From a virus (taxonomy: Duplodnaviria > Caudoviricetes), in IMG/VR virus record IMGVR_UViG_3300005326_000040, positions 64,001-128,000 of that record: a stretch of 64,000 nt of DNA; one strand, 5' to 3'. The notes beneath the pieces are model-generated. The model ran no database searches, was not told the origin of the DNA, and saw nothing but the letters and a program-made list of their open reading frames with translations. Numbering within the stretch: position 1 is the stretch's first letter; each line of letters opens with the position of its first letter. Positions 5,363 through 22,526 of the stretch are shown here, one piece after another. The position numbers were made by a program, and so were the translations under genes.

Positions 5363-5414
5363 GAGAATACTCTCTTAGATAATATACACACACATACTAT
5401 CGCCGTACCGGCCC

Positions 5415-5640
5415 CTGGTTAATTACTTGGGTTTACCACTGGTGCCCTCTGGTCAATTACTGGAGTTTGAAGATATTTATACCTGGAGTCGTCTGGTTAA
5501 TCACTGGAGTTTACTGCTAGTGCCTTCTGGTCAATTACTGGAGTTTGAAGATATTTATACCTGGAGTTTGGAGTTATTTATACCTGGAGTCGTCTGGTTA
5601 ATTACTGGAGTTTGCTGGTCTGTAATTTCTGGATATTATG
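5415..5640. repeat. Array of CTGG(A/T) units, mostly 10-14 bp apart, including an exact 42-nt direct repeat
   Basis: TCTGGTCAATTACTGGAGTTTGAAGATATTTATACCTGGAGT at 5448-5489 and 5526-5567; recurring CTGGTTAATTA / CTGGAGTTT units. Confidence 0.9.
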
Positions 5641-5853: not shown

Positions 5854-5917
5854 CCTAGTGTCACGTCACGCGCTGTGATGCCATCTAGTGTGATGCAACG
5901 TCGTATAGTGTAACGTA

Positions 5918-6017
5918 GCGCAGTGACCATATATTGCACTATATCGTCACTCGGTCTGCGGTGTCGTGTAGCGTAGCGTAGGCCAGCGCAGTGACCATAT
6001 ATTGCACTATATGGTCA
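5918..6017. repeat. Two copies of a 27-nt palindrome-forming element
   Basis: GCGCAGTGACCATATATTGCACTATAT at 5918-5944 and 5986-6012; second copy folds TGACCATATA-ttgcac-TATATGGTCA. Confidence 0.85.
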
Positions 6018-6040
6018 AACCGCCTAACCCTGCCGTTACC

Positions 6041-7255: not shown

Positions 7256-7903
7256 ATGAATAGTTCGATTACCCGCAAGGCTTTCATCGCGATGCTCAAT
7301 ACGTTCGTTCGTCAGATGGAAGGCGTCATTGACGCCTGGAACGCCATTGAACGGATGAACCATATCTGCGCCGACGTTGAGGCGCAGATCTTCAGCAACA
7401 ATAGTGACCGCTACCACGACGGTAGCGTGACCACAACTGATTACAACATCCTTCTGCGAGGGCAGAAGGTGGGGTACGTTCGGGTGCGGGAAACTCACGA
7501 ATATCGGGAGGAAAGGGAGGTCTTTGTCTCCTTCACCGAGCTTTCCCCTCGCGAATGGCGGGAGCGGAAGGCTTCACAGCGGGCTGCGGCCCGCCGTCAT
7601 CAGGAGGCGTACGACGCCTCCCGTGAAGTCGTCGCTGCCGCCCTGGCGGCGGGGCAGTCCGTCCGTGTCCAAGATGGACAGAAAGGGGGGGTTTTCGTGA
7701 TTGGCGACCACAGGGTCGCCGCTGTGCGGCTTCTCACCTCGGCGTATTTCGGTTTCTCTGAGGAAGAGGCGAATCGTCGCCTCGGGGAGGCTTGGTACAA
7801 GGGTAGTGACAGTTGGGGGGGATTCACATTCACCCTCAACCCCGAGTTGGCACATCGCCAGTTCGGTCGTCCTACCAGCATCGAATGGGAGATGACGGCC
7901 TGA
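7256..7903 (+). CDS. Hypothetical protein (215 aa)
   Basis: GCAGGAG-attacc-ATG start. Confidence 0.85.
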   Translation: MNSSITRKAFIAMLNTFVRQMEGVIDAWNAIERMNHICADVEAQIFSNNSDRYHDGSVTTTDYNILLRGQKVGYVRVRETHEYREEREVFVSFTELSPREWRERKASQRAAARRHQEAYDASREVVAAALAAGQSVRVQDGQKGGVFVIGDHRVAAVRLLTSAYFGFSEEEANRRLGEAWYKGSDSWGGFTFTLNPELAHRQFGRPTSIEWEMTA

Positions 7904-7919: not shown

Positions 7920-7980
7920 CGCCGATGTTTGCCCCTTTCTCAGCCTTCGGCTGGGGGAGGGGCGTTCTTTCGGCGGTTAA
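7920..7980 (+). repeat. Intergenic hairpin R1
   Basis: CGCCGA-tgttt-GCCCCT...cagccTTCggctg...AGGGGC-gttctt-TCGGCG-GTTAA. Confidence 0.9.
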
Positions 7981-8105
7981 AAGCAACCGCCTCTGAGGGG
8001 CGGTATACAAGTACCCTGACGTGAACGAAGGCTTTCCCTACCTTTGGTGAATACCCTATGGGGTAAAGGGGAGACGGTAACATTATCCCACCGACAAGCG
8101 GATAT

Positions 8106-8173
8106 GTAGCACAATGTGGAACCTAATGAGTTATTGGCATTAGGGATGGGTTCGATTCCCATATGTGCTGCCG
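8106..8173 (+). ncRNA. D-armless tRNA-like RNA
   Basis: GTAGCACA/TGTGCTGC acceptor, CCTAATG/CATTAGG arm with 9-nt loop, ATGGG-TTCGATT-CCCAT T-arm; no CCA. Confidence 0.5.
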
Positions 8174-8256
8174 AGTGAAGATAATTCTTTCATTCGATTG
8201 TGGAGCATTCACAAGTAACAGGGTGTGAGTGGATTGAATCTCCAATCCAACTCTAA

Positions 8257-8363
8257 CTGGGTTTAGCTCAAGGGTAGAGCAACTTATGTTTCAAGGTCCT
8301 TCCTAACCAGCGGGACACCGAAACATAGGGATATATCGAGTTCAAGTCTCGATAGCCCAGCCA
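8257..8363 (+). ncRNA. tRNA-like RNA with a greatly enlarged anticodon arm, ends CCA
   Basis: CTGGGTT/AGCCCAG-CCA acceptor, GCTC-AAGGGTA-GAGC D-arm, ATCGAG-TTCAAGT-CTCGAT T-arm; 10-bp stem CTTATGTTTC/GAAACATAGG enclosing 27 nt. Confidence 0.75.
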
Positions 8364-8479
8364 AGTTAGTTGTCCTTTTCCTCTTCGGGGGATTAGCCCA
8401 TAGGGACGTGGGCACACCAGCCGTTATGTGGACGGTTGGAATGATTGTTGGGGTAATCCCCGTTGAAGGAGAATGAATC

Positions 8480-8755
8480 ATGGCACGTCGTAATGCTGCT
8501 CGTCGGGCTCGCAATTCAAAGAGGTCTGCCCTCGTGACTGCCGCTATTCAGATGGCTTGCAATGCGGGCTCCGGGCTTCAACTCTTCGTCGGAGCCTCCG
8601 TCGAGGAGTGTGAGCATGATTACGCGAAGAGCCTCGGTGCGGAAGCTGCAAGGCTCCGCTCGGGGCTCTTGGGATACGGGCTCAATATGGCGGCATTCCG
8701 CCATGAACCGCCCGTCGTTCAAGACTACGTGAGGAACTACATCCTCCTCGCATAG
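8480..8755 (+). CDS. Hypothetical protein
   Basis: AAGGAG SD; followed by hairpin R2. Confidence 0.8.
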   Translation: MARRNAARRARNSKRSALVTAAIQMACNAGSGLQLFVGASVEECEHDYAKSLGAEAARLRSGLLGYGLNMAAFRHEPPVVQDYVRNYILLA

Positions 8756-8760
8756 TTTTG

Positions 8761-8823
8761 CCGCCGACGTTTGCCCCTGTATCGGCCTTCGGGCCGGTAT
8801 GGGGGCGTTCTTTCGGCGGTTAA
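8761..8823 (+). repeat. Intergenic hairpin R2
   Basis: CCGCCGA...GCCCC...ggccTTCGggcc...GGGGC-gttctt-TCGGCGG-TTAA. Confidence 0.9.
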
Positions 8824-8867
8824 CAAGCTCCAGTGGGGTAACCAGTCCCCCATGAAAGGATATTACC

Positions 8868-9086
8868 ATGTACAAGTCCAATTCATTCGGCTCTCTCGGC
8901 GCGTCCCTTGGCGTGGCGAAGGTGCGGGAGCTTTCCCGCGCACTTCATGTCGCCGACTCCCGCCGTGAGGCGGCGAATGTGCAGAAGCTCATCGAGGCGA
9001 AAGCCTCTGAGATGCGTCGTTCGCTGAAGAATCCCGAGAGCTATGCTCTCGTGATCAATGCCCTCAAGAAGGAGGGCAAGCTGTAG
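8868..9086 (+). CDS. Small basic hypothetical protein
   Basis: AAAGGA-tattacc-ATG. Confidence 0.8.
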   Translation: MYKSNSFGSLGASLGVAKVRELSRALHVADSRREAANVQKLIEAKASEMRRSLKNPESYALVINALKKEGKL

Positions 9087-9095
9087 AGCGGGATT

Positions 9096-9158
9096 CCGCC
9101 GATGTTTGCCCCTGCTTTGGCCTTCGGGCCATTGTGGGGGCGTTCTTTCGGCGGTTAA
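9096..9158 (+). repeat. Intergenic hairpin R3
   Basis: Same consensus. Confidence 0.9.
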
Positions 9159-9170
9159 AGGAGGCGCAAT

Positions 9171-9458
9171 ATGAGTGCGCTCGAACGCAAGAAGGCCGCG
9201 AAGCTGGAAGCGCGGCGAAAGAAGTGTATTCTCTACGAGACAGCCAAGAAGGTTGTCTATAGCGCTGGCACTAAACAGGTGTCAGCAATGGTAAGCCGTC
9301 CGATGGCTTGCCCTCACTCGGACTTCACATACGACTTGTGGGAAGTCGTTGTTTTCAACAGCGACAATTCCACCTGTCGTGCCAGTTGCTATCTTCCAAA
9401 GGAGGAGGCTCTTGCTCTTGCTCGTAATTGGGCAATTGAGTTTGGAGCCATTCTTTGA
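9171..9458 (+). CDS. Hypothetical protein
   Basis: AAGGAGG SD directly after R3. Confidence 0.8.
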   Translation: MSALERKKAAKLEARRKKCILYETAKKVVYSAGTKQVSAMVSRPMACPHSDFTYDLWEVVVFNSDNSTCRASCYLPKEEALALARNWAIEFGAIL

Positions 9459-9461
9459 TAC

Positions 9462-9525
9462 CCGCCGATGTTCGCCCCTTTCTCAGCCATTCTGGCTGGG
9501 GGAGGGGCCTTCTATCGGCGGTTAA
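9462..9525 (+). repeat. Intergenic hairpin R4
   Basis: Same consensus with compensatory changes. Confidence 0.9.
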
Positions 9526-9528
9526 GAA

Positions 9529-9666
9529 TGCCAGATATCGTCCCCACTTCCTTTTCCCGCAAGGATTAGGGGGTCAAGTTGAAGAAGGACAAACCGGGAT
9601 GAACAATCCTGGAGGGACGGAGAGCTTTCGAGTTCTCAGGTGGTTCAATTCCATCATCTGGCACCA
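9529..9666 (+). ncRNA. 138-nt tRNA-like RNA: 8-bp acceptor, T-arm and CCA with a large inserted domain
   Basis: TGCCAGAT/ATCTGGCA-CCA; GGTGG-TTCAATT-CCATC; GAGAGC/GTTCTC hairpin; CGTCCC/GGGACG enclosing about 70 nt with sub-hairpins. Confidence 0.7.
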
Positions 9667-9762
9667 AAGCAAGTGTGTATCTTTAGGAGTTTGGGATTGT
9701 TTTTGCTCCGGAGTTCGGGAGCAAAGCATAATCATTCTCCTAAAGAACACAAAGGAGGAGAG

Positions 9763-9999
9763 ATGCTGACGAAAACGAATGCAAGAAGGTTGGTGGAGAT
9801 TGTTGCGCAGATAAAAGACTTGTCTGCCAAGAACGGCATGATCGATCAACGCCACGAAGATGTGGCGAAGATTCTGGGGACGTATAAGGAGGATGAATAT
9901 CCTTCTGAAGAAGACCCCGAGTGGCGCAAGAACAACGACGAGATTGGCAATCTCTACAACGAGCTTCTGTCCATCATCAACACAAGTCTCCCCCTGTAG
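9763..9999 (+). CDS. Hypothetical protein
   Basis: AAGGAGG SD, ATG 9763. Confidence 0.75.
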   Translation: MLTKTNARRLVEIVAQIKDLSAKNGMIDQRHEDVAKILGTYKEDEYPSEEDPEWRKNNDEIGNLYNELLSIINTSLPL

Positions 10000-10005
10000 A
10001 GACTT

Positions 10006-10067
10006 CCGCCGATTACCCGCCCCTTTTCAGCCTTCGGGCTGAGGAGGGGCGCCCTTTCGGCGGTTAA
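10006..10067 (+). repeat. Intergenic hairpin R5
   Basis: Same consensus. Confidence 0.9.
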
Positions 10068-10069
10068 AA

Positions 10070-10340
10070 GCTACACCCTATCCCAAGTATGTTCTCGTTC
10101 TCTCCATTATGGTATGGTTTTCAGTAGGGGGTAAAACATAAACCCCTTCTGGAAACTCTACCTCAACAATTCCCGATGTTTCTTTGTGTAGGGTTGTTGC
10201 CTACACGAGAGATAAAAGGATAGTTGATAGTATGACCCCCACCAAAGGGTCATTTATTAATGGGTAGAGGGTGAGAACAAACCTGGAGTGGAATTATCGA
10301 ATCGCCTGATAGGCGGCCTGGGGGCGGAACAACAACTCGG
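10070..10340 (+). ncRNA. Structured intergenic RNA, homologous to 6075-6345
   Basis: Shared co-linear motifs; GTGTAGG/CCTACAC and TGACCC/GGGTCA hairpins. Confidence 0.55.
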
Positions 10341-10343
10341 AGA

Positions 10344-10886
10344 ATGATCATGAAGACGACTTCCAAGATGAACGCGCTTCTGAATGCGGCCTGTGACCAT
10401 GCGAAGGCGCGTGGTCGTTTCCCCATGTACTTGGACCCGGTTAGGTTCGAGTTTGACGGGGACAGTGACTGTTACTTCGCCGCAAGAGCGAGGGACTTCA
10501 CGTTCTCCAAAGGGGCCGCAGCGATCATTGGTGCCGACATGATCGTCACCATGTTCGCGGGGGAGGAGCAGTGGGGAATGTTCTTCTCTACTCGTGAGTT
10601 GCTTGACCCCGAAACGCTCAAGTGGCTCAAGGATTCCGACCACTTGTTGGAAGACGAGTGGAAAGCAGCGGAGTCCTTGGCGAAGAAGGCCGAGCAACTC
10701 GCCTCTCAGGCGCGAGTTTCGGCCTTGAAGGCTCGTGAAGCGAGCCTCAGTGCCAACGACTTCCAGGTGGTCATGGTGGAGATTGAGCGAAAGCCCATCT
10801 TCGCCGCGCTGCCTGAGACAGTGGAAGTTCATCCCGTCTTCAGTCAGATCAACCGAGAGGTTGATTTCGATTGCAACTGGGATTGA
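10344..10886 (+). CDS. Hypothetical protein
   Basis: GGAG SD, GC-biased codons. Confidence 0.85.
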   Translation: MIMKTTSKMNALLNAACDHAKARGRFPMYLDPVRFEFDGDSDCYFAARARDFTFSKGAAAIIGADMIVTMFAGEEQWGMFFSTRELLDPETLKWLKDSDHLLEDEWKAAESLAKKAEQLASQARVSALKAREASLSANDFQVVMVEIERKPIFAALPETVEVHPVFSQINREVDFDCNWD

Positions 10887-10896
10887 ACCTGTTTCT

Positions 10897-10961
10897 CCGC
10901 CGATTGTTTGCCCCTGCTTTCGCCTTTCGAGGCGATTGAGGGGCATTCTTTCGGCGGTTAA
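10897..10961 (+). repeat. Intergenic hairpin R6
   Basis: Same consensus. Confidence 0.9.
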
Positions 10962-10983
10962 CAAGCAACCACTGGAGGCTGCT

Positions 10984-11232
10984 ATGAAGAAGCTGTGGTT
11001 TTGGGTGCATAGTGCGCCCACGGGGTTCGTCAAGGATGCTGATCGTCATGTTGTTGTGATGGCGATTGCTACCGAGGACGAGATTTATGGCCCTGGTATC
11101 GGTCTCGACAACTGGCACGAGACTGGTATCGAGGGCACTCTTGATGGTTGCCTCGCGACCCTCAAGAAGAATCATCCATGCGTCAACATGGAGACAATCC
11201 TCGGCGGCTGTTTGGGTTACGCCGTCGAATAA
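10984..11232 (+). CDS. Hypothetical protein
   Basis: GGAGG SD, ATG 10984. Confidence 0.75.
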   Translation: MKKLWFWVHSAPTGFVKDADRHVVVMAIATEDEIYGPGIGLDNWHETGIEGTLDGCLATLKKNHPCVNMETILGGCLGYAVE

Positions 11233-11234
11233 TA

Positions 11235-11545
11235 GTGGCTGATAAGTTGCTATCAAGAAAGGGCAGGAACGTATAGGAGTAACAATCCTAGTTCGAGTCT
11301 CCCCATAGGAAAGATAGGGCAAAGCCCACGTTGGACAATCTTTCCGCAGGTTTAGGCGAGCCAACCTATGGATGACTATAAACGGTTATAAGGCTCAGGG
11401 TCCAATGTTACTAGGTTAGGAAGGAGACCCAATGTAACGATAGCGGGTCTGGAGACAACTGAATAGCCCACCCTTCGGCAAGGTGGGCAATCTTAAGGGT
11501 ATGACTATTATGGTTGTATCCTTAAGATTGCCCAATTAGCCCCAA
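11235..11545 (+). ncRNA. About 310-nt structured intergenic RNA candidate with a pseudoknot
   Basis: CCATAGG/CCTATGG and GTTGG/CCAAC helices; crossing GTTAC/GTAAC and AGACCC/GGGTCT; 14-bp perfect inverted repeat 11485-11498/11520-11533. Confidence 0.55.
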
Positions 11546-11568
11546 CATATACCTGAGAGGAAAGAGTC

Positions 11569-11925
11569 ATGATCAAGGTGTGTTTCAACGAAGTGCCTGC
11601 CAATGTGGCGCAGTTCGTGGCGAAGAACATCCAGTCGGCGCAAATCGTGCGAGCGGCACGACCGGCGCCGATTGCGGCAGGAATGAAGCATTCGCCCAAT
11701 GTCATTGGAGGACGCCGTTACGGCAAGTACTCCAGGGGCGATAAGAACCGTAACCTCCGTAAGTCGGTGACGACCTATGGAGGACACACCTTCAAAGAGT
11801 TGATGGTGTTGATGGGCAACTCCGTGCCGATCAGCCAACTTCTCGCCATGAAGGAGACGAGGGAGTATTACGTCGGTGTTCGTCACGAATCGTGGAAGAA
11901 GTTCCGCGACCATCAGTGGAGGTAG
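11569..11925 (+). CDS. Basic hypothetical protein
   Basis: GAGG SD. Confidence 0.8.
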   Translation: MIKVCFNEVPANVAQFVAKNIQSAQIVRAARPAPIAAGMKHSPNVIGGRRYGKYSRGDKNRNLRKSVTTYGGHTFKELMVLMGNSVPISQLLAMKETREYYVGVRHESWKKFRDHQWR

Positions 11926-11929
11926 TTCG

Positions 11930-12106
11930 ATGGAAAGGTATCAGTGGGAAGCCTTGGCGGAGACGTTGTTGATGCTCTCTCGTGCTCAGACCATGAGCGG
12001 TTTGAATTACGAACGGGTTCGACAGTTCGTCCGTGGAGAGAGGCCGCTGTCGCGGCGAATTCGCCGGTCGATCAACATCCTCTCCAGAACCGTATTCGAT
12101 AAGTAG
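11930..12106 (+). CDS. Small Arg-rich protein
   Basis: GGAGG SD, ATG 11930. Confidence 0.7.
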   Translation: MERYQWEALAETLLMLSRAQTMSGLNYERVRQFVRGERPLSRRIRRSINILSRTVFDK

Positions 12107-12167
12107 TTCTGTTCGCCCCTGCTTTGGCCCTTCGGGGCCATTGTGGGGGCGATTCATTGGCAGTTAA
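12107..12167 (+). repeat. Intergenic hairpin R7
   Basis: TTCGCCCCT...ggcccTTCGgggcc...GGGGGCGA...GTTAA; outer stem decayed. Confidence 0.8.
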
Positions 12168-12178
12168 GGAGAGGTCCA

Positions 12179-12346
12179 ATGGAGAAGCTTCTTCAAGTGA
12201 TGAGGTCGAGGAAGTGCTCCTATACGGAGTACATTGAATTGAGGCTCGCCGTATTGGCCGACATCGGCAAGGGCGGCGACGAACTGGTAGCAAAAATCTT
12301 TCGGGGGTTGGGGATTCCGATTCCTGTGGACCCTCGTTACAACTAG
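12179..12346 (+). CDS. Small hypothetical protein
   Basis: AAGGAG SD after R7. Confidence 0.7.
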   Translation: MEKLLQVMRSRKCSYTEYIELRLAVLADIGKGGDELVAKIFRGLGIPIPVDPRYN

Positions 12347-12378
12347 GGTTCCTTCTCGCCGAAAGAAAGGAACACGTC

Positions 12379-12678
12379 ATGCTCTTTGAAGTGCGACCGC
12401 CGAATTCAATGAAGAACGTCATGGTGACGTTTGAATCGAGTACTCGGCGGGAAACAGCTGCCGCAAATGCTGCTGTTGAATCAGTTCTCAAAGATGAGGA
12501 CTTGCAGCCTTTTCATCAGATGGGCTGTGACCCTTTCTACGGGAACGACGCTCCCGGCATTCATGGTTGGGAAATCTGGGTTGACGGGGAGAACATTGCG
12601 CGGGTGGCGGCGCTTCTTCCAAAGATCCAGACCATCTACGAGAAGGAGTATATCCTTCGGGACTGGATGGAGGATTGA
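12379..12678 (+). CDS. Hypothetical protein
   Basis: AAGGA SD. Confidence 0.8.
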   Translation: MLFEVRPPNSMKNVMVTFESSTRRETAAANAAVESVLKDEDLQPFHQMGCDPFYGNDAPGIHGWEIWVDGENIARVAALLPKIQTIYEKEYILRDWMED

Positions 12679-12710
12679 ATTGGCAGGTTCGATTCCTATC
12701 CGTTCGGCCA
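12663..12710 (+). ncRNA. Possible tRNA minihelix or 3' tRNA remnant
   Basis: GCAGG-TTCGATT-CCTAT (one mismatch) then CCGTTCGG-CCA; weak GU-rich partner CTGGATGG overlaps the upstream gene end. Confidence 0.3.
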
Positions 12711-12726
12711 AGGAAGGAGATGAATC

Positions 12727-13038
12727 ATGAAGGTTCGTATGATGATTCTGGTTGATGGACAGTATCGTTGGGTCGATAGCAAATTCAAAAGCAGCTTGGA
12801 AGCTGCTCAGGAGGTGAGTATTCCCTATATCGCTGGTGCATCTCGTGGTGAGGAGGGGTGCATCGAAGTCACTGGCAACAAGGTGACTTTCGTCGGCTAT
12901 CCCGTCAACGTTCTTATCAGTGAGGATGAGAACCCGATCACCATGGTCATGTCTGTGAGGGAGCAGAACATGGTCAAGGAGTCGTATCCTTGCACGCCCG
13001 AAGAAGTCAACGAGATGAGGGCCGCCAACAAGGAATAA
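12727..13038 (+). CDS. Hypothetical protein, paralog of 22215-22526
   Basis: LVDG..RWVDS.F...GEEGCIEV.G..V.F..(Y/F)P. Confidence 0.85.
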   Translation: MKVRMMILVDGQYRWVDSKFKSSLEAAQEVSIPYIAGASRGEEGCIEVTGNKVTFVGYPVNVLISEDENPITMVMSVREQNMVKESYPCTPEEVNEMRAANKE

Positions 13039-13042
13039 CCGT

Positions 13043-13204
13043 ATGGAGCAATACGTTCACGACTTCGGCATCATCTGGCAAGTGATGTGTAAGACCTACA
13101 TTGCCCACATTCTTTTTGTGTGGGTGATGGTGGTGTTCACAGTTGAGAAGTGGCAGGAGTATCAGGAGGCCAGGGTGATGGTTCTCCGAAAGCTCCATAA
13201 GTAA
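13043..13204 (+). CDS. Small membrane protein (53 aa, not in track)
   Basis: MEQYVHDFGIIWQVMCKTYIAHILFVWVMVVFTVEKW...; AAGGA SD. Confidence 0.65.
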   Translation: MEQYVHDFGIIWQVMCKTYIAHILFVWVMVVFTVEKWQEYQEARVMVLRKLHK

Positions 13205-13217
13205 GGGAGAAGAGAGA

Positions 13218-13520
13218 ATGAAGAAGGTTGTGTTCGCATTCATCCTCGCCGCTATCGTTAGTGGTTGTGCCAAACCGGAGCCGAAGGTTCCTGTTGTTTC
13301 CCAGCAGCCCCAAGTGGCGCGGGTCATCTATACCGAGAAGGATTCTCCTCTCGACTATACAATCCGCGCCGAACAGGCTGTGATCGAAGGGGGTAGGACG
13401 GCGAAGCAGGCTGCCAGTCAGGCATATGATTGGGCAGCAAAGGAAGCGGAGGAGTTGGCCGACAAGGCGCGACGCGCCAAGAAGGCGGCCAAGGAAAAGA
13501 TTCACGAGATGACGGAGTGA
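13218..13520 (+). CDS. Predicted lipoprotein
   Basis: MKKVVFAFILAAIVSGC lipobox. Confidence 0.8.
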   Translation: MKKVVFAFILAAIVSGCAKPEPKVPVVSQQPQVARVIYTEKDSPLDYTIRAEQAVIEGGRTAKQAASQAYDWAAKEAEELADKARRAKKAAKEKIHEMTE

Positions 13521-13534
13521 CGTAGTGACGTAGT

Positions 13535-13597
13535 GGATGGTGTTCGCCCGTTATTCGGCTATAGAGCCGGGTGACGGGCGATGCTGTTTTCTTTTAA
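13535..13597 (+). repeat. Intergenic hairpin R8 (subfamily B), possibly terminator-like
   Basis: TCGCCCGTTA-TTCGGCT-atag-AGCCGGG-TGACGGGCGA-tgctgttttcttTTAA. Confidence 0.85.
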
Positions 13598-13624
13598 CGA
13601 GAGCCTTTCCCAAGGAGAAGTAAG

Positions 13625-13801
13625 ATGAGCAAGAACGAACTGATCGCGTTGGGGCTGGAAGCGCATGAAGTCGATTACATCGCCGAAGCGGTCGCCAAGA
13701 ATGGCGAAGTACTCGGCGACATCGTGCATGTGGACTTCTGCGTCAGCCCCAGGAGCGTTGGCGTGGAAACGGTGAATGAGGCGTACGACCTGGGACTGTG
13801 A
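13625..13801 (+). CDS. Small hypothetical protein (58 aa, not in track)
   Basis: AAGGAG SD; MSKNELIALGLEAHEVDYIAEAV... Confidence 0.7.
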   Translation: MSKNELIALGLEAHEVDYIAEAVAKNGEVLGDIVHVDFCVSPRSVGVETVNEAYDLGL

Positions 13802-13809
13802 GGTTCGTC

Positions 13810-14784
13810 ATGGGGTTAAATGAAGTCATCAATGGGCTGAAGCAGGGCAAGTCCTTCGAAAGGGCAGGGACGAGCACTGGTGGTGGGAAATATGTGGAAA
13901 AACTGATTGCTGTGAGTGCAATCTACTTCAAGCATCAGATCGTTGGCGCCATGAGTGGTCATGGTTGGGGAGGGTCGAGCCAGTTGGAGATCAATATCCT
14001 CAACAACGGTCGCTGGGACGAAGATGGATGGAAGGAGATTGCACCAGCCAGAGGTGAACAGTCATAAGTGGAGCAAACGATGACAACGATTATCGTTAAC
14101 ATATCGGATGACCTTTCCCTTGCAGATCGTGCCTACACGGTGGACGATTTGCAATTCTTGCTGAGTGATGCCTTGCGGTCTCACGGGATTGGCTGTCACC
14201 TTACGGTGCTCCCAACCGAGACAGACGAGCAACGGATCATTCAGATCATCCAAGAAAGCAAAAGTGTTTTGCACGCCATCAAAAGCGTACGAAGCACTTT
14301 TGGGTTTGATCTGCTCACCTCCAAGAGAATCGTGGAAGACCTTATCGCCAAAGGTACAACTGTGGGCGGGAAGTTGTAGAGGGAGGACACCATGCCAGCA
14401 GTGAGTCGTAAAGAAATCGATCATGAGCGTGAAGTTGACGCTCAACTCAAAACGGACCTTTGTAACCTTGCATGGTACGGGTCCGACAATCCTGAGGTTG
14501 TCAAACGAGCGGAGGCCAAGGAACGTGAGTGGAGCGAGAAGCACTATCGCTCTTTCATGGACGACCAGTTGGAGAGTCTTCGTTGTACTCTGCACAAAGA
14601 GATGATGGAAGACTTGTTGGATGACGATTTGGAAGCCTGTCAAGACAGGAGGGCAACTTCCAGGGACATCAGCGATGACCCTTACGACGCTCTGGACTTC
14701 CACGAGCCTTCGCCGTATGTCGAACAGGAGCCGGACTACGAGTCGGCGGCCGAAGAGTTCGCAGATTACGACGAGTACGATTGA
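13810..14784 (+). other. Three hypothetical CDSs
   Basis: 13810-14067, 14068-14379, 14392-14784 (acidic C-terminus). Confidence 0.75.
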
Positions 14785-14795
14785 AGGGAGGAGAT

Positions 14796-15233
14796 ATGAT
14801 TCACATCTATACAAGCACTGTGGTTCCTCTCGCCACGGTGGAGAATCACGTCGGCTATATGGCTGACCTTAATCTGCTTGAAGACTACAGGTTGGTTCAT
14901 CTCGATCACACTGCTCCGCACAACTTTCAGGCGGAAGAAGCGGAGAAGGTGATTGAGAAGCACAAGGCCAAGCCGCGCTTCATCTACGCGGTTGCTTGTG
15001 TGATGGAACCGGCGATTCTCCGGATTCTTCGGAGGGTCAGGGAGGGCAAGCTTTCCCACGAAGATGTCAAGGTTTTCGTTCTCTCATACGACGCCAACGA
15101 AAAGGAGGAAGTTTGCGAGTGTCGAGTGGATGGCGATGGGGACTTCATTGACTCCTGGCCTGATGGGTTTTTCGAGGCATGTTCCAAAGAGTTGTTTGCG
15201 GAAGGGGATACTGATGGCACCACGAACGCCTGA
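14796..15233 (+). CDS. Stand-alone DUF3696-like protein (C-terminal module of ABC/AAA ATPases)
   Basis: AILRILRRVREGKLSHEDVKVF...CRVDGDGDFIDSWPDGFFE matches the recalled DUF3696 pattern; no Walker A. Confidence 0.6.
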   Translation: MIHIYTSTVVPLATVENHVGYMADLNLLEDYRLVHLDHTAPHNFQAEEAEKVIEKHKAKPRFIYAVACVMEPAILRILRRVREGKLSHEDVKVFVLSYDANEKEEVCECRVDGDGDFIDSWPDGFFEACSKELFAEGDTDGTTNA

Positions 15234-15855
15234 GAGCAATCGTAGGCCGCCGACGATTAGTGACAAGCAGTTGGTCAATCGTCGCATCCGAGTGGTCTAT
15301 CGGCGCCGCAGCATTGACTCCTATCACAACATCATCTATCACGATGATATCGAATGTGAGGGGGTTCTTCGGCTCAATCCTTCGGGATATGGGTTGACGG
15401 TGTTGACGGATGACGGTCGGTCGGTTGGGTACTTCCGCGCCGACTGTCCACTCCAACGCGACGAACCGATGCCCAGTGATTTCTCCCACATGAAGGGATA
15501 CGATGGGCACGCTGATTTGAGCTATGAGTTGACGCCGGTATCCGACGAAGTGATTCCGGTGGCGACACCGGAGAACGTCGGGGAACCGGCGAAGTCTCCG
15601 GTGATGTATTACCGAAGTGAGGCTCAAGGCGTTCTCAGGAACGACCTGAACAACACAGTCGTTGGTACGATGGAATCGTATCGAGTATGGGTCGTCACCC
15701 AGAATCAGTGGCTGGAGGTCACTGAAACAATTATGAAGATGTTGTATGGGTCGGAGAGTAATCTTCGGCGCTGGCATCCTCAGGGTGAAAAGGTTTCAAC
15801 GTTCTACGATCACTTCGAAAGGAACTTCCCTGGGGTATCCCTGGGACTTGCGTGA
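15214..15855 (+). CDS. Hypothetical protein
   Basis: ATG 15214 after AAGGGG. Confidence 0.8.
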   Translation: MAPRTPESNRRPPTISDKQLVNRRIRVVYRRRSIDSYHNIIYHDDIECEGVLRLNPSGYGLTVLTDDGRSVGYFRADCPLQRDEPMPSDFSHMKGYDGHADLSYELTPVSDEVIPVATPENVGEPAKSPVMYYRSEAQGVLRNDLNNTVVGTMESYRVWVVTQNQWLEVTETIMKMLYGSESNLRRWHPQGEKVSTFYDHFERNFPGVSLGLA

Positions 15856-15914
15856 GGGGTTGGTCGCCCGGTATCGTTCTTGGAACGGTATCGGGCGATG
15901 CTGTTTTTATTTAA
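15856..15914 (+). repeat. Intergenic hairpin R9 (subfamily B)
   Basis: TCGCCCGGTATCGTTC-ttg-GAACGGTATCGGGCGA-tgctgtttttatTTAA. Confidence 0.85.
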
Positions 15915-15933
15915 CGATACCAGGAGGATTACC

Positions 15934-16200
15934 ATGTGCATGTCGATTGACGACAAGGTTCCCTTCAAGTGGACGCCGCACGAGCAGGCTTCCCACGTTA
16001 TCATTGGATACTGTGCCAAGTGTGGAAGTGGCGGTATCATGATGACGGCGAAGAACGAACTGGAAGCCTACAGGATGAGGAAGTGGTATCGAGCCCACGG
16101 TTATCCGAAGGCTCGAATCGAACTGGACAATGAGGAGACCTCCAAGCAGGTTTCGGATGAGTTGACGGACCTCATCTGTTGGGAAGACTCTCACGTCTGA
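15934..16200 (+). CDS. Hypothetical protein with CxxC
   Basis: CAGGAGG-attacc-ATG. Confidence 0.75.
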   Translation: MCMSIDDKVPFKWTPHEQASHVIIGYCAKCGSGGIMMTAKNELEAYRMRKWYRAHGYPKARIELDNEETSKQVSDELTDLICWEDSHV

Positions 16201-16245
16201 GTCGGGATAACGCCGCAAAGAAATCCTTTTCAAAGGGAGAGAGTT

Positions 16246-16779
16246 ATGAACCAGAGCAACATGATTGCCATGGCTACGAGCCCTTCATCGTTCGACATGT
16301 TCAAGTTGACGGAGATTCTCGTCAACTGCGGAGGGACGATCTTCGGTGGGTTCGTGAGGGACATGGTGGCTGGGCAGTTGGACTTCGTGAGCGACATCGA
16401 CGTGAGTATGCGTCAGGAGTTCAAGCTCCAGTATCTCATGGCAAGGCTTATCAAAGAATACCAGCAAGTGCTGGTGTCGGCCTTGCCTGTGAAGAATTAC
16501 GGGAGAGGGAACCCCGACGGGTTCCGGTTGACTGTGGACGGTATTGATGTTGATATCGTTTGCGAGGCCGATCGAGGAATCCTTGACCTCGACGTGAATG
16601 GGCTCCTGTGGGACAATAATGGGTTGAGGTTGGATATCAGCCGATATCGTGTCAACGGGGACACCTTCGTTCAGTTGGTTCAACGGATTCAGCAGAAGCA
16701 GTTCCGTCGAATCGACGTTCCGCTGTGGCGGGAGAGGAAGGTGGCGAAGCTGAAGTCGATGGGGTGGACGGAAGTGTGA
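16246..16779 (+). CDS. Nucleotidyltransferase, tRNA-nucleotidyltransferase/poly(A) polymerase head domain only
   Basis: GGTIFGGFVRDM...SDIDV...DVDIV...DLDVNGL; 177 aa, lacks body/tail. Confidence 0.75.
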   Translation: MNQSNMIAMATSPSSFDMFKLTEILVNCGGTIFGGFVRDMVAGQLDFVSDIDVSMRQEFKLQYLMARLIKEYQQVLVSALPVKNYGRGNPDGFRLTVDGIDVDIVCEADRGILDLDVNGLLWDNNGLRLDISRYRVNGDTFVQLVQRIQQKQFRRIDVPLWRERKVAKLKSMGWTEV

Positions 16780-16785
16780 GGGTAG

Positions 16786-16848
16786 GGATGGTGTTCGCCC
16801 GTTATTCGGCTATAGAGCCGAGTGACGGGCGATGCTGTTTTCTTTTAA
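16786..16848 (+). repeat. Intergenic hairpin R10, near-identical to R8
   Basis: One substitution relative to 13535-13597. Confidence 0.9.
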
Positions 16849-16876
16849 TGAGGGCGTCATTGAAAGGACAAGAAGA

Positions 16877-17476
16877 ATGATCAAGACAATCAACAGCAAC
16901 ATCGTCAAGTGCTTCGACAGCTTCTGCGTTGGGACCAAGATCAAGAATGTCGAAGCGTTCTTGAGGCTGTTGGAAGCAGCCATCGAGAGTTTCGATTGGT
17001 CGTCCTGTAAGGCACCAGGGCAAGCCAAGATTCCGATGTCCACCGAAGCGTGTCAGCACGTTTACTCGGGGATTGGTTTGAAGACAGAGAACCCCAACGA
17101 TTACGTGATTCGTCAGTGGCGTGGTTCGGTAGCGATGTATCTCAAGAGGGAGCACGCCATTGCTTGTGATTCAGTGAAGGTCATTGTGTATACGAAGCAG
17201 GCGTATCTCGATGACCCGGATTGCAAGGGGAATCCTGAGAAGGGAATTATCGGGGACGAAGAGGAATACAATCGGGTAAGTCAGTCCGATTGTACACACG
17301 TTCTGATAGCGGTTCAGGCGGACGCTGGTCCGGAGAGTCCAGTTGCACCGGGGCGGTTCGTAGCGAACCTAGCCGGTGCGAACAATGAGTACGAGGCCAA
17401 AACCGCCGAGCAGCTTCAACAATTGGCGAGAGAGATTCGCGACTACTATGCGACGTATATGGTGGTTGCGGACTGA
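16877..17476 (+). CDS. Hypothetical protein (weak recalled resemblance to DUF3228)
   Basis: AAAGGA SD; VIVYTKQ...ESPVAPGRFVANLAG; CDS is solid, family call is weak. Confidence 0.7.
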   Translation: MIKTINSNIVKCFDSFCVGTKIKNVEAFLRLLEAAIESFDWSSCKAPGQAKIPMSTEACQHVYSGIGLKTENPNDYVIRQWRGSVAMYLKREHAIACDSVKVIVYTKQAYLDDPDCKGNPEKGIIGDEEEYNRVSQSDCTHVLIAVQADAGPESPVAPGRFVANLAGANNEYEAKTAEQLQQLAREIRDYYATYMVVAD

Positions 17477-17552
17477 CAAGTAACTTCTCGTTGGTTGTTT
17501 GAAGGGTAATTACCGGGAGATAATGTAATGAAGATTGGAATCTGAGCAGTAA

Positions 17553-17640
17553 GGCCCGCTGGTGGAAATGGTGAGACACACAGGATTTAAAATCCTGCGG
17601 CCGAAAGGTCATAAGGGTTCGACTCCCTTGCGGGCTACCA
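17553..17640 (+). tRNA. trnL: tRNA-Leu, anticodon TAA
   Basis: GGCCCGC/GCGGGCT acceptor, CAGGA-TTTAAAA-TCCTG anticodon arm, long variable arm, AAGGG-TTCGACT-CCCTT, ACCA end. Confidence 0.95.
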
Positions 17641-17660
17641 ATGGTTTGAAGGAGGTTTTT

Positions 17661-18017
17661 ATGGGGCGAAAGAAGAAGACGAAGGCTGATTACGAGGAGC
17701 TACCGTTTAGACTGGGTAATTCTAGACGCCTTCAAGTAGATGGAGTAGTAAAGAAGATGGCGCCTGGAAGATTGGACGAATGGAGGTGGGACCAATATGG
17801 TCGGTCGATAAAGGGGTTGGAATATTTTAACTTGCTTCATCAGGTTTGGGGTAGGATTGAAAGAATAACTCCAGTCCTTCACGTAGTCTACATATTCAAA
17901 GATGAAGTTACGTGGGGACGGCGAGAGTGTTGGGTAAAGCTGAAGAATGGTAAGATGGTAGAGTGGTCGAAGAAGGCGATAAGCTGGAAAGAATATCGCG
18001 AGACGCAGTATCGGTAG
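17661..18017 (+). CDS. Basic Trp-rich hypothetical protein
   Basis: AAGGAGG SD, ATG 17661. Confidence 0.8.
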   Translation: MGRKKKTKADYEELPFRLGNSRRLQVDGVVKKMAPGRLDEWRWDQYGRSIKGLEYFNLLHQVWGRIERITPVLHVVYIFKDEVTWGRRECWVKLKNGKMVEWSKKAISWKEYRETQYR

Positions 18018-18026
18018 TGATTGATG

Positions 18027-18105
18027 GGGCGATAAGGTATATGGGGATATCTATTAGAATGTAATAGATATCTTTTAGAAGGTTCAAATCCTTCTAGGCC
18101 CGCCA
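18027..18105 (+). ncRNA. Degenerate tRNA-like RNA, anticodon arm replaced by a perfect 11-bp hairpin, ends GCCA
   Basis: GATATCTATTA-gaatg-TAATAGATATC; AGAAGG-TTCAAAT-CCTTCT; GGGC/GCCC short acceptor. Confidence 0.6.
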
Positions 18106-18497: not shown

Positions 18498-19758
18498 ATG
18501 CCGGTACAGATTACATACAAGGCGGCGCAGATTCTCGCTGAAGCAGAAAAGGTGAATCTGGAAGACGCGATTCAACTCAACCAATATGGGGCGTTGTTTC
18601 GATGTCAGGAGGGAACGGAGGTAGGCAGGACTCTTGGGGAGGAGGGGCCGAAGTATTACATATGGGGGTCTAAGCCAAGGATTCCTCAGGGGCCGGGAGG
18701 GGTTGAGGGGGACGTTCAGGAGACGCTCAAGCGGCTGAAGGAAACCATCATTGGTTTGGTTCAAGTTGCCGTACCAGCATTGATGAAGCTGGCTGTAGCA
18801 AAGGATAGGGTTACGCTTCTCGACGCAATTGGTTTTGATCAAGATGAAAAAGCCAAGGCTGTGAAGGCTAGATTGGAAAAGGAGATTCAAGACCTTCAGA
18901 CTGAAGTGACGGCTTTGTTGTACAGCATGTAGGAGGAGAGATGAGAAAAATCTTCTTGCTCCTCTTTGATACTGGGGATTACGAAGACCGTGAATCAGTC
19001 CCAGTCAAAGCCTTTGTGGATGAAACAAAGGTTCAGGCTTTGAGGGACAGCCTCAATAATAAGTTGGCTGAAAAGAACCTGTATCTTCAAGGAGATGAGG
19101 ATAACGCCGTCATTTTCAGCGGAACCAACGCAATGGCTCTTGAAAAGGAGCTTAAGGACATTTACAGCATTGATGTAAGAATCTACAGCACAGGAGGATA
19201 CTTCAGCGTAACTCATATACAGTTGGACGAAAGTTAGGATAGCGGCTAGGATAACATTCCGGATCAACAACGATTTCCAGTATTGAAAGGCAGGATTACC
19301 ATGGCATTTACATTCGGAACTCTCGCTTCCAAGTTGGCTCCCTCGGCTGAAACCAAGAAGCTTTCGGCGACGCAGCAGCGGAAGATGATTGCTGCTGAGA
19401 TTGGGGAGAAGGTGAAGGGTGCTGGGAATCCTCAGCTGATGTTGGAGATTGTGGTTCGGCACATCAATAACCTTCATCGTCGAGACCTTGGGTACGTAGA
19501 CATGAAGAACCCGGCCCATATGGAAAGGGTGGCGGACTTCGTGGCGGCGTGTTTGAGGGTGAAGTAATGAAAGTCATTCAGATTTCGGAACAACAACTGG
19601 ACTTGTTGTTCGAGACGGCGCTAGCCACCATCACGAATCACATCCTTCGGGGGAAGGAAAGGACAGCAGACTTTACTGGACAGAACGAACTTGATTCTGC
19701 TCAGCGTAACATTCACTATCACATGACAATGTTGAAGGAAGCTGTGAAGACTGGATAA
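18498..19758 (+). other. Four hypothetical CDSs
   Basis: 18498-18932, 18941-19237, 19301-19567, 19567-19758. Confidence 0.75.
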
Positions 19759-21957: not shown

Positions 21958-22218
21958 ATGAAAACCAAGAGCGGTCGGCATGTCATTTTCGACGCAACTT
22001 CCCCCGAGTTCTTGAAGGGGCAGTTGTTGTCCAAAGACTTTGTGGATGCGGCTCCGAATGGGGAGCCGTGGTTCTTCCAACCTGCTGATTGGAACGAGGA
22101 AAACTTCTGGGGAGGATTGTACAGCAGGAAGTCTCCTTTCGCTTATTCTCCTGGGTATGCTTCTGCGGAAGAAGCATTGGAGGCGGCTGAGGGTTGGGAG
22201 AGCAGGAGAAAATCATGA
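21958..22218 (+). CDS. Hypothetical protein, paralog of 19864-20160
   Basis: Shared motifs. Confidence 0.85.
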   Translation: MKTKSGRHVIFDATSPEFLKGQLLSKDFVDAAPNGEPWFFQPADWNEENFWGGLYSRKSPFAYSPGYASAEEALEAAEGWESRRKS

Positions 22219-22526
22219 GCAACGGTCGAGCGATGGTTTTGATTGATGGAGTTCACAAGTGGGTGGACTCTGACTTCCTGCGCTTGATTGAGGGGCAGGA
22301 CAGTCGCGTAGAGTATCTAGGGGGAACGAAGAGTGGGGAGGAGGGATGCATCGAAGTGATTGGGGAGAATGTGTACTTCAGCGCATTCCCCGACAACGAT
22401 AGCGGACAGACCAACCTTCAGGCTTTCATCAAGCCTCTCTCGGAAAAGGAGAAGGCGTTGGTGGAAGCTGGGGTTGAGTGTTCGCCCAAAGAGGTTCAGG
22501 AACTAAGGAGCTACTGGGTACTATGA
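22215..22526 (+). CDS. Hypothetical protein, paralog of 12727-13038
   Basis: GEEGCIEV motif. Confidence 0.85.
   Translation: MSNGRAMVLIDGVHKWVDSDFLRLIEGQDSRVEYLGGTKSGEEGCIEVIGENVYFSAFPDNDSGQTNLQAFIKPLSEKEKALVEAGVECSPKEVQELRSYWVL

Follow-up and report, generated by a model that had tools for sequence, protein, structure and literature searches.

Predicted tRNA-like elements sharing an acceptor/T-arm half in the early gene array of a jumbo bacteriophage

Plant mitochondrial t-elements have a tRNA-like but non-canonical fold, keep a conserved T arm of the motif GGTTCRANYCC and sit at gene boundaries within longer transcripts; like the tRNAs that punctuate mitochondrial transcripts, they are thought to direct cuts by RNase P and RNase Z, both cuts have been shown by mapped ends, and the excised element can gain CCA (Forner et al. 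2007, PMC1920247). Among bacteriophages, T4 encodes the 139-nucleotide (nt) stable RNA C (species 1 RNA, rnaC; AF158101), annotated as a small stable RNA, and 'enigmatic' tRNA introns have been reported in Lak megaphages (Devoto et al. 2019, PMC6784885). YrlA RNAs of bacteria and phages also contain a tRNA-like domain, and one of them is cut by RNase P and gains CCA (Chen et al. 2014, PMC4201824). Here we describe four intergenic, tRNA-like elements on the coding strand of a groundwater phage, found in a window of 64,000 nt (bases 64001–128000 of a single 338,055-bp contig, IMG/VR record IMGVR_UViG_3300005326_000040; positions below are those of the window unless given as genome positions). 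The only part common to A (8106–8171), B (8257–8363), C (9529–9666) and D (18027–18105), all on the + strand, is the top half of a tRNA, the lower half being enlarged, replaced or missing. What is new is that enlarged, replaced and short-acceptor architectures which keep a tRNA-like acceptor/T stack stand together in one putative early operon, and one of them (B) may be an interrupted tRNA-Glu.

A–D resemble t-elements in their non-canonical folds, T arms and gene-boundary placement. Unlike t-elements, they occur in a bacteriophage, encode CCA in B, C and D, have lower halves that are enlarged or replaced and not merely degenerate, and are known here from DNA alone, the single public sequencing run that contains the stretch being a DNA run. 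C is similar to T4 rnaC in size and layout: between their paired ends, both have a long structured domain, another hairpin and then a canonical T arm. The likeness is one of layout only. Whereas rnaC lies in a tRNA cluster, C is placed among early protein genes and has a perfect 7-bp acceptor and an encoded ACCA. Since T4 rnaC folds like C, stable tRNA-like phage RNAs have long been known, and this close published analogue is to be added to those named in the first-pass annotation of the window (tmRNA and Y RNAs), from which it was omitted. T4 rnaD gave no tRNA-like fold in our analysis, and we know of no function for rnaC. The tRNA-like domain of transfer-messenger RNA (tmRNA) likewise combines an acceptor, a T arm and CCA with a large non-tRNA domain and has no anticodon arm, but A–D have no G3·U70 pair, tag reading frame or pseudoknot array.

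The described folds of all four elements were reproduced by RNAfold without constraints, and all four were better than dinucleotide shuffles (z = −2.6 for A, −4.8 for B, −4.2 for C and −3.9 for D). A has an 8-bp acceptor with the terminal pair G8106–C8171, an 8-nt connector, a 7-bp stem with a 9-nt loop (8122–8144), a 1-nt variable region and a T arm (8146–8162), in agreement with the first-pass description of a D-armless element with a 9-nt loop and no CCA. Its acceptor ends in a G:C pair, like the phage tRNA-His with G-1:C73. B has a full cloverleaf body with U8, A14, G18 and G19, a D arm (8266–8280) with GGG, a T arm (8336–8352) and a GCCA end. Its anticodon arm is built of a 10-bp stem, a 3×3 internal loop, a 4-bp stem and a 13-nt loop. 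The D arm, T arm, CCA and 10-bp stem over 27 nt first noted for B were thus all found, but the acceptor, described as canonical, is ambiguous and can be read either as 7 bp without a discriminator or as 6+6 bp with G73-CCA.

C, the longest element (138 nt), has a perfect 7-bp acceptor (9530–9536/9656–9662), extended to 8 bp in all by T9529–A9663 and containing C3–G70. A three-hairpin multibranch domain closed by a 6-bp stem (9539–9619) replaces the D and anticodon arms, and the T arm (9639–9655) and A73-CCA (9663–9666) complete the element. RNAfold gave the 8-bp acceptor, multibranch insert, T arm and CCA without a D arm that had been claimed, to which an 18-nt UUCG-capped hairpin in place of a long variable arm (9620–9637) has to be added. 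In D, a 14-nt connector containing AAGG leads from a short acceptor (GGGC/GCCC, 18027–18030/18098–18101) to a perfect 11-bp hairpin with a 5-nt loop (18046–18072), followed by a 7-bp T stem with the loop TTCAAAT (18076–18096) and G73-CCA. The hairpin and CCA of D are as first described, but the acceptor is of just 4 bp beside the 7-bp T stem. D lies approximately 10 nt past a stop codon and approximately 30 nt before the next start codon.

The T-loops of all four elements have the sequence TTCRANN (T54 T55 C56 R57 A58), are closed by G53–C61 and are followed within 0–1 nt by the acceptor 3′ strand. The motif GGTTCRANYCC is present in A (GGTTCGATTCC), C (GGTTCAATTCC) and D (GGTTCAAATCC), and B deviates from it (AGTTCAAGTCT). 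The acceptor and T stems together make a stack of ~12–14 layers, which in C is the standard 7+5 and in A is longer, with 8+5 pairs plus an A·A mismatch. Read as 6+6 pairs, B keeps a 12-layer stack, and so does D when read as four pairs, a mismatch and seven pairs; only the partition is shifted. NCCA is encoded in B, C and D, so the elements do mostly end in CCA; as a distinguishing mark this fails, because about one-third of the ordinary tRNA genes of the phage encode CCA too. The first-pass annotation spoke of a second class of tRNA-like RNAs, but one group by descent is not supported. A blastn comparison of A–D and a fifth candidate, E, found no sequence similarity among them and no paralogues elsewhere in the genome, and the layouts differ. 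A–D are therefore a heterogeneous set, not one family by descent, each with a layout of its own.

The T-arm/acceptor signal exceeds chance. Genome-wide, T arms with a 7-bp acceptor closure numbered 34 on the + strand and two on the − strand, with a mean of 1.4 in 20 shuffles, and the strict T-arm motif gave 27 versus 1. T-arm-like matches at 19604, 21486, 39281, 30397, 36177 and 55118 had no convincing acceptor closure or had weak stems and were treated as chance. The fifth claimed element, E (12663–12710, +), described earlier as a possible minihelix, was the only one of the five that did not survive unconstrained folding: its tRNA-like fold (−6.3 kcal/mol) is far less stable than a plain hairpin (−18.6 kcal/mol) that consumes the T-loop sequence. 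E has a z-score of −1.8 and a T stem with three Watson–Crick pairs, overlaps the last codons of the open reading frame (ORF) 12379–12678, and has no counterpart in the related phage lineage described below. An ordinary gene-junction hairpin is the likelier identity, and E is left out of the set.

None of the four elements belongs to a described family at Rfam gathering thresholds, at which the window yielded only ordinary or near-ordinary tRNAs at other positions. This agrees with the first-pass inference that the elements match neither tmRNA nor Y RNAs, and the check it proposed, against the tRNA, tRNA-Sec, tmRNA and Y RNA/YrlA models, gave no significant hit. A relaxed search (E ≤ 10) over stretches of 24.5 kb and 1.7 kb gave 15.7 bits for A against the tRNA model (RF00005; cut-off 29) and, as the sole match of C, 18.1 bits for its 3′ part against tRNA-Sec (cut-off 47). 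At the same E-value B and D had no tRNA match, and none of A–D matched tmRNA, Y_RNA or YrlA. ARAGORN at its defaults called no tRNA on A–D, and its tmRNA mode found none in the window or the genome.

Comparison with a related lineage showed that two of the elements are conserved. A homologue, 42% identical, of a 177-amino-acid (aa) ORF of the window was found on seven JGI metagenome contigs (L018–L024), which are identical throughout the RNA regions and thus represent one lineage, one independent comparison and a handful of events. L018 and the window have several early genes in common at 33–52% amino-acid identity and in rearranged order; at the nucleotide level approximately eight segments aligned, mostly RNA elements. 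The strongest nucleotide match between the phages was A together with its 120-nt leader (7985–8171 against L018:138–325; 82% over 192 nt, blastn E = 1e-42). The leader (7985–8105, +), which is intergenic in both phages, folds into a 7–8-bp hairpin, then a branched domain, and lastly a hairpin of 6 bp (ATATCC/GGATAT), whose end is one base short of A; it has no Rfam family match, and RNAalifold gave both phages a common fold in which columns 51/58 and 70/83 show double changes. In the A homologue (L018:259–325), double changes keep an acceptor pair (A-U to U-A) and a hairpin pair (G-C to A-U), so that the stem is maintained by compensatory change around a conserved loop core, GU-W-AUUG. One further hairpin pair is lost on both strands, one T-stem pair is lost, and the T-loop reads TGCAATT. 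ARAGORN with lowered thresholds called A as tRNA-Ile(aat) in both phages, but the registers differ and are non-homologous, and the call was discarded.

The homologue of D (L018:4898–4973; 79% over 109 nt, E = 4e-16) follows an orthologous gene in both phages. Ten of the 11 hairpin pairs are identical, a double change (U-A to A-U) occurs in the hairpin, and a single change in the T stem keeps its pair. Thus A with its leader, and D, are clearly conserved far above the surrounding genes, and structural conservation in relatives, which had been named as a check on the first-pass proposal, is present for both with compensatory changes. One anticodon-less cloverleaf of the window is also retained, at 78% identity. 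A B-like counterpart (L018:347–437), located 3′ of the A homologue, combines the D-loop motif GGGTAGAG with a T arm, an ACCA and a 9-bp hairpin whose loop has 12 nt; it aligns poorly with B, to which it is similar in design and position. C had no homologue, either in the comparison with L018 or in a pattern scan of genome contigs with its top half. A 52-nt element (L018:1680–1731), which begins 6 nt past a stop codon three genes after the A/B pair, in a slot similar to that of C, has a 7-bp acceptor, a 4-bp hairpin, a T arm and A73; if this candidate is the counterpart of C, the large insert of C would be dispensable.

A further contig, L025, encodes a 30%-identical homologue of the 177-aa protein and, just 5′ of that gene, a 48-nt segment (2274–2321) with an acceptor-like stem and T-arm-like sequence, of which the minimum-free-energy fold keeps the stem and not the T arm. 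Other searches added no lineage. There were no close DNA relatives in the phage collection. In IMG/VR, the flanking protein 7256–7903 found no relatives and the terminase found four contigs, three of them short and without the early region and the fourth of 244 kb. Pattern scans for D and the A leader found none in IMG/VR or metagenome contigs, and a scan of genome contigs for the A leader was likewise negative. Homologue searches with the proteins 15064–15855 and 22194–22526 returned the window's own sequences only.

The reading that we favour, though we place it slightly short of an even chance, is that A–D are tRNA-derived processing signals which host tRNA enzymes would excise from early transcripts, as a form of transcript punctuation. 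We prefer excision because A–D share the unit on which RNase P, RNase Z and CCA-adding enzymes act, together with a placement like that of t-elements, and the relative keeps elements of this kind, which makes cleavage signals for tRNA-trimming enzymes the likeliest role. The unconstrained folds, the coding-strand bias of the T-arm/acceptor closures and the 52-nt minimal element of the relative speak for it too. Each of the four lies between + strand ORFs, and sigma-70-like promoters were found about as often as expected (11 versus 10.1). On this model A–D would be embedded in long polycistronic early transcripts, and selection would keep their top half, that is the T-loop, an acceptor/T coaxial stack of approximately tRNA length and usually NCCA. 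RNase P would cut on the 5′ side, and RNase Z or 3′ exonucleases would trim the 3′ side; excision would thereby cut the early message at fixed intergenic points and release a small, presumably stable RNA, of which CCA-adding enzymes would recognize the same top-half unit. A and C begin 1–4 nt after a stable hairpin, which for C is a 60-nt intergenic hairpin (9462–9525) ending 3–4 nt upstream, and if RNase P cut at either element, the upstream mRNA would end in a hairpin that protects it.

Several observations count against transcript punctuation. A pure cutting signal leaves the conservation of the lower halves of A and D unexplained, and does not by itself account for the 120-nt leader of A being the best conserved piece. 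A hairpin that directly adjoins the cut is a less than ideal setting for RNase P, and a dense family of ~60-nt hairpins separates the same genes and could process the transcript alone. The comparative support comes from one related lineage, in which C is without a homologue. If RNase P and RNase Z do excise A–D, giant phages would organize early expression in the manner of mitochondria, by tRNA-shaped punctuation, and such elements would reveal how operons are laid out in uncultured phages. With A–D and the anticodon-less cloverleaves of the window, a single phage has tRNA-derived RNAs at many stages of remodelling, a natural series for learning what each processing enzyme requires of a tRNA.

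For B, a different origin is compatible with transcript punctuation by A, C and D. It is possible, although doubtful, that B is a present or recent decoding tRNA-Glu(UUC) with a 30-nt insert in the anticodon loop (approximately 8294–8323), either spliced by a protein-based cut-and-join reaction or tolerated. All cloverleaf marks are present outside the arm, and any 30-nt in silico deletion within the arm led to an ARAGORN tRNA call at the default threshold. Deletions starting at 8293–8296 gave Glu(ttc), and removal of 8294–8323 left G32, U33, UUC, A37, a 5-bp anticodon stem and G73-CCA. However, the anticodon varies with the placement of the cut, with Glu, Leu, Phe and a stop suppressor all possible, and B was not called by the ARAGORN intron mode. 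In the B counterpart of the relative, which has a different stem and a shorter insert, UUUCA likewise lies just after the stem, but trimming did not give a good cloverleaf. Also in keeping with this reading, GAA is the commonest codon of the phage (49.9 per 1000 genome-wide) and no other tRNA-Glu is encoded in it. Against this identity, the D arm of B differs in type from that usual in bacterial tRNA-Glu.

As to how B might be spliced, the anticodon loop of the phage's tRNA-Asn gene carries an insert of 57 nt, two PF09414 RNA ligases are encoded in the genome, and the introns of the Lak megaphages (PMC6784885) lend further support. As in B, a short insert that is not of group I interrupts the anticodon loop of an otherwise good tRNA body in the Lak genes and the tRNA-Asn; they differ in that gene finders miss the insert of B, whose excision points are putative. 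B has two 3-nt strands opposed in a 3×3 internal loop and no bulge-helix-bulge, its insert is too short for a group I intron, and no RtcB or splicing-endonuclease (EndA) domain was found in the genome. If B is an interrupted tRNA-Glu, it would be the second case after tRNA-Asn for short protein-dependent tRNA splicing in bacterial viruses, a putative process.

The lower halves point to a further alternative, which we consider unlikely: that the released RNAs are tRNA mimics, with the top half docking on a tRNA-binding protein and the lower half adding specificity. Candidates for this protein include EF-Tu, an aminoacyl-tRNA synthetase and a host defence nuclease or toxin that targets tRNA, as well as the phage's own small CCA-type transferase and its Ro60-like protein. 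A cutting signal would not call for as much conservation as is seen in A's leader and in the lower halves of both A and D, which lends a role in trans some probability. The phage also invests heavily in RNA repair and tRNAs (a TROVE protein, two PolyA_pol-type transferases, two RNA ligases and 19–20 tRNAs), its 177-aa transferase adjoins a tRNA or tRNA-like element in three lineages, and the G:C end of A's 8-bp acceptor recalls the phage tRNA-His. However, decoys for anticodon nucleases would need an anticodon loop, which A–D do not have, the insert of C is absent from its possible counterpart in the relative, and distant transferase homologues are mostly without tRNA-like neighbours. Of the first-pass picture of a tRNA elbow and CCA chassis carrying cargo domains, the constant top half is upheld, whereas the 'cargo' is putative, and B resembles an interrupted tRNA-Glu(UUC) gene more than a carrier of cargo. 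Should the lower halves act in trans, they would represent a new type of phage regulatory or counter-defence RNA.

A broader version of this idea, to which we give a low probability, combines it with the splicing of B. A–D would then be a trans-acting RNA toolkit built on a top-half scaffold that is processed, CCA-tailed and stabilized, whose lower parts would engage phage or host proteins, and B would be a tRNA-Glu needing novel non-group-I splicing. In A these conserved lower parts would be the 120-nt leader and the 9-nt loop, in D the 11-bp hairpin and in C the three-hairpin domain; possible targets would be the minimal CCA-type transferase, the RNA-repair set and host tRNA-targeting defences.

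Phage tRNA clusters accumulate degenerate copies, which speaks for A–D being decaying tRNA pseudogenes. Alternatively they could be DNA-level elements with no RNA function, such as copies of host tRNA 3′ halves serving as attachment sites or, for D, an operator palindrome, since D's hairpin forms a perfect palindrome in the DNA and a helix-turn-helix gene follows. But A and D outdo their flanking genes in conservation and keep their stems by double changes, and the acceptor 3′ strand of A, B and C has a pairing partner on the 5′ side, for which an attachment-site fragment has no need. The T arm and acceptor 3′ half of C had no exact match in one genome each from 185,579 bacterial and archaeal species, and the helix-turn-helix gene does not follow D in the relative. 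In view of this conservation and the lack of a host tRNA match for C, we regard pseudogenes and DNA-level elements as very improbable.

Least probable of all, to the point of being hardly tenable, is that A–D are Y RNAs partnering the phage Ro60/TROVE protein: the phage does encode a TROVE-domain protein, and TROVE-bearing jumbo phages are expected to have a tRNA-like partner (PMC7824862), but YrlA, although tRNA-like with a T arm, is encoded next to the Ro60 gene, carries the motif GNCGAAN0-1G and has ends that form the Ro-binding stem, with a closed stem-loop as its 'acceptor' (PMC4201824), whereas the ends of A–D are free at the acceptor, the motif was not seen when their sequences were read by eye, no YrlA or Y_RNA match was obtained at the relaxed threshold, and the TROVE gene (genome 248257–249858) is about 166–176 kb from A–D. 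The spacer upstream of the TROVE gene (genome 247850–248256) contains three GGG-AGTGA...GGYTACTTC repeats, a T arm (GTGG TTCGAAT CCAC) and GGCGAAGG, the last of which fits the YrlA Ro-binding motif. From its sequence, this spacer may be a divergent Y RNA undetected by Rfam. The Y RNA reading of A–D is weak because the layouts differ and this spacer is the better candidate.

The contig, an IMG/VR virus record estimated to be 97% complete, encodes a terminase large subunit and 19 tRNAs detected by ARAGORN, including a suppressor with the anticodon UUA (reading UAA; genome 28046–28121) in a tRNA cluster. The insert-bearing tRNA-Asn, found by ARAGORN with introns allowed and also located in that cluster, is the 20th. 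The size of the contig, the virus record, the terminase and the 19–20 tRNAs identify a jumbo phage. The early-looking array begins at ~6.3 kb of the window and consists of small + strand ORFs, with a G+C content of 51–60% between 6000 and 18000 compared with 41.6% for the genome. Its codon use (GAG > GAA and AAG >> AAA) is the reverse of, or stronger than, that of the remaining phage. The ~60-nt nested intergenic hairpin family has six full copies in 7920–10960, with an outer stem CCGCCGA/TCGGCGG, an inner stem GCCCCT/AGGGGC and an apical stem that varies among copies with pairing kept; variants near 12105–12170, 13540–13600, 15860–15920 and 16790–16850 end in T-runs and are terminator-like. 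Between the divergent − and + strand gene blocks lie arrays of direct repeats at 5400–5640 (CTGGAGTTTGAAGATATTTATACCTGGAGT-like) and 5860–6020 (GTGACCATATATTGCACTATAT-like); iterons or early promoter/operator sites are possible roles. An ordinary class II tRNA-Leu(UAA) with an encoded ACCA (17553–17640, +; called by ARAGORN, Rfam tRNA 50.6 bits), 81% identical to L018:8144–8229, stands one gene before D. Both this tRNA and D lie ~10–30 nt ahead of the ribosome-binding site of the next gene.

The 177-aa ORF (16246–16779, +) encodes a stand-alone nucleotidyltransferase of the CCA-adding enzyme/poly(A) polymerase head-domain type, as judged from motifs, Pfam and PDB profiles. The motifs GG-x-VRD ... 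DID and LDLDVNGLL are invariant, and the ORF has invariant GG-x-x-RD, D-x-D and D-x-x-x-N motifs. PF01743 matched 14 of 32 members, and the profile matched CCA-adding enzymes in the PDB with an E-value of 5e-4. The family, of proteins of 150–190 aa, is widespread; 176 library proteins scored at E ≤ 0.001, and a profile search of IMG/VR found nothing. An AlphaFold model based on three sequences was too poor for a structure search (mean predicted local distance difference test score, 59.9). In the window, L018 and L025 the gene adjoins tRNA-Leu(UAA) or a tRNA-like element; three of four lineages of more distant homologues have no tRNA-like neighbour, so a general linkage of transferase and tRNA is not established. 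The loci of the two RNA ligases and of the other PolyA_pol-domain protein, which is of a more standard type and has an open frame of 257 aa, are at genome 198734–199303, 151730–152269 and 296282–296665. On sequence assignment these proteins, together with the TROVE protein, form a putative RNA-repair set, in which no RtcB was found. In the CCA-bearing tRNA-like elements the base that follows CCA is always A. At least eight tRNA or tRNA-like genes of the phage have C-T-A at positions 74–76, and CCA is encoded in about one-third. With so many tRNA genes ending in CTA at these positions, CCA addition must matter during infection.

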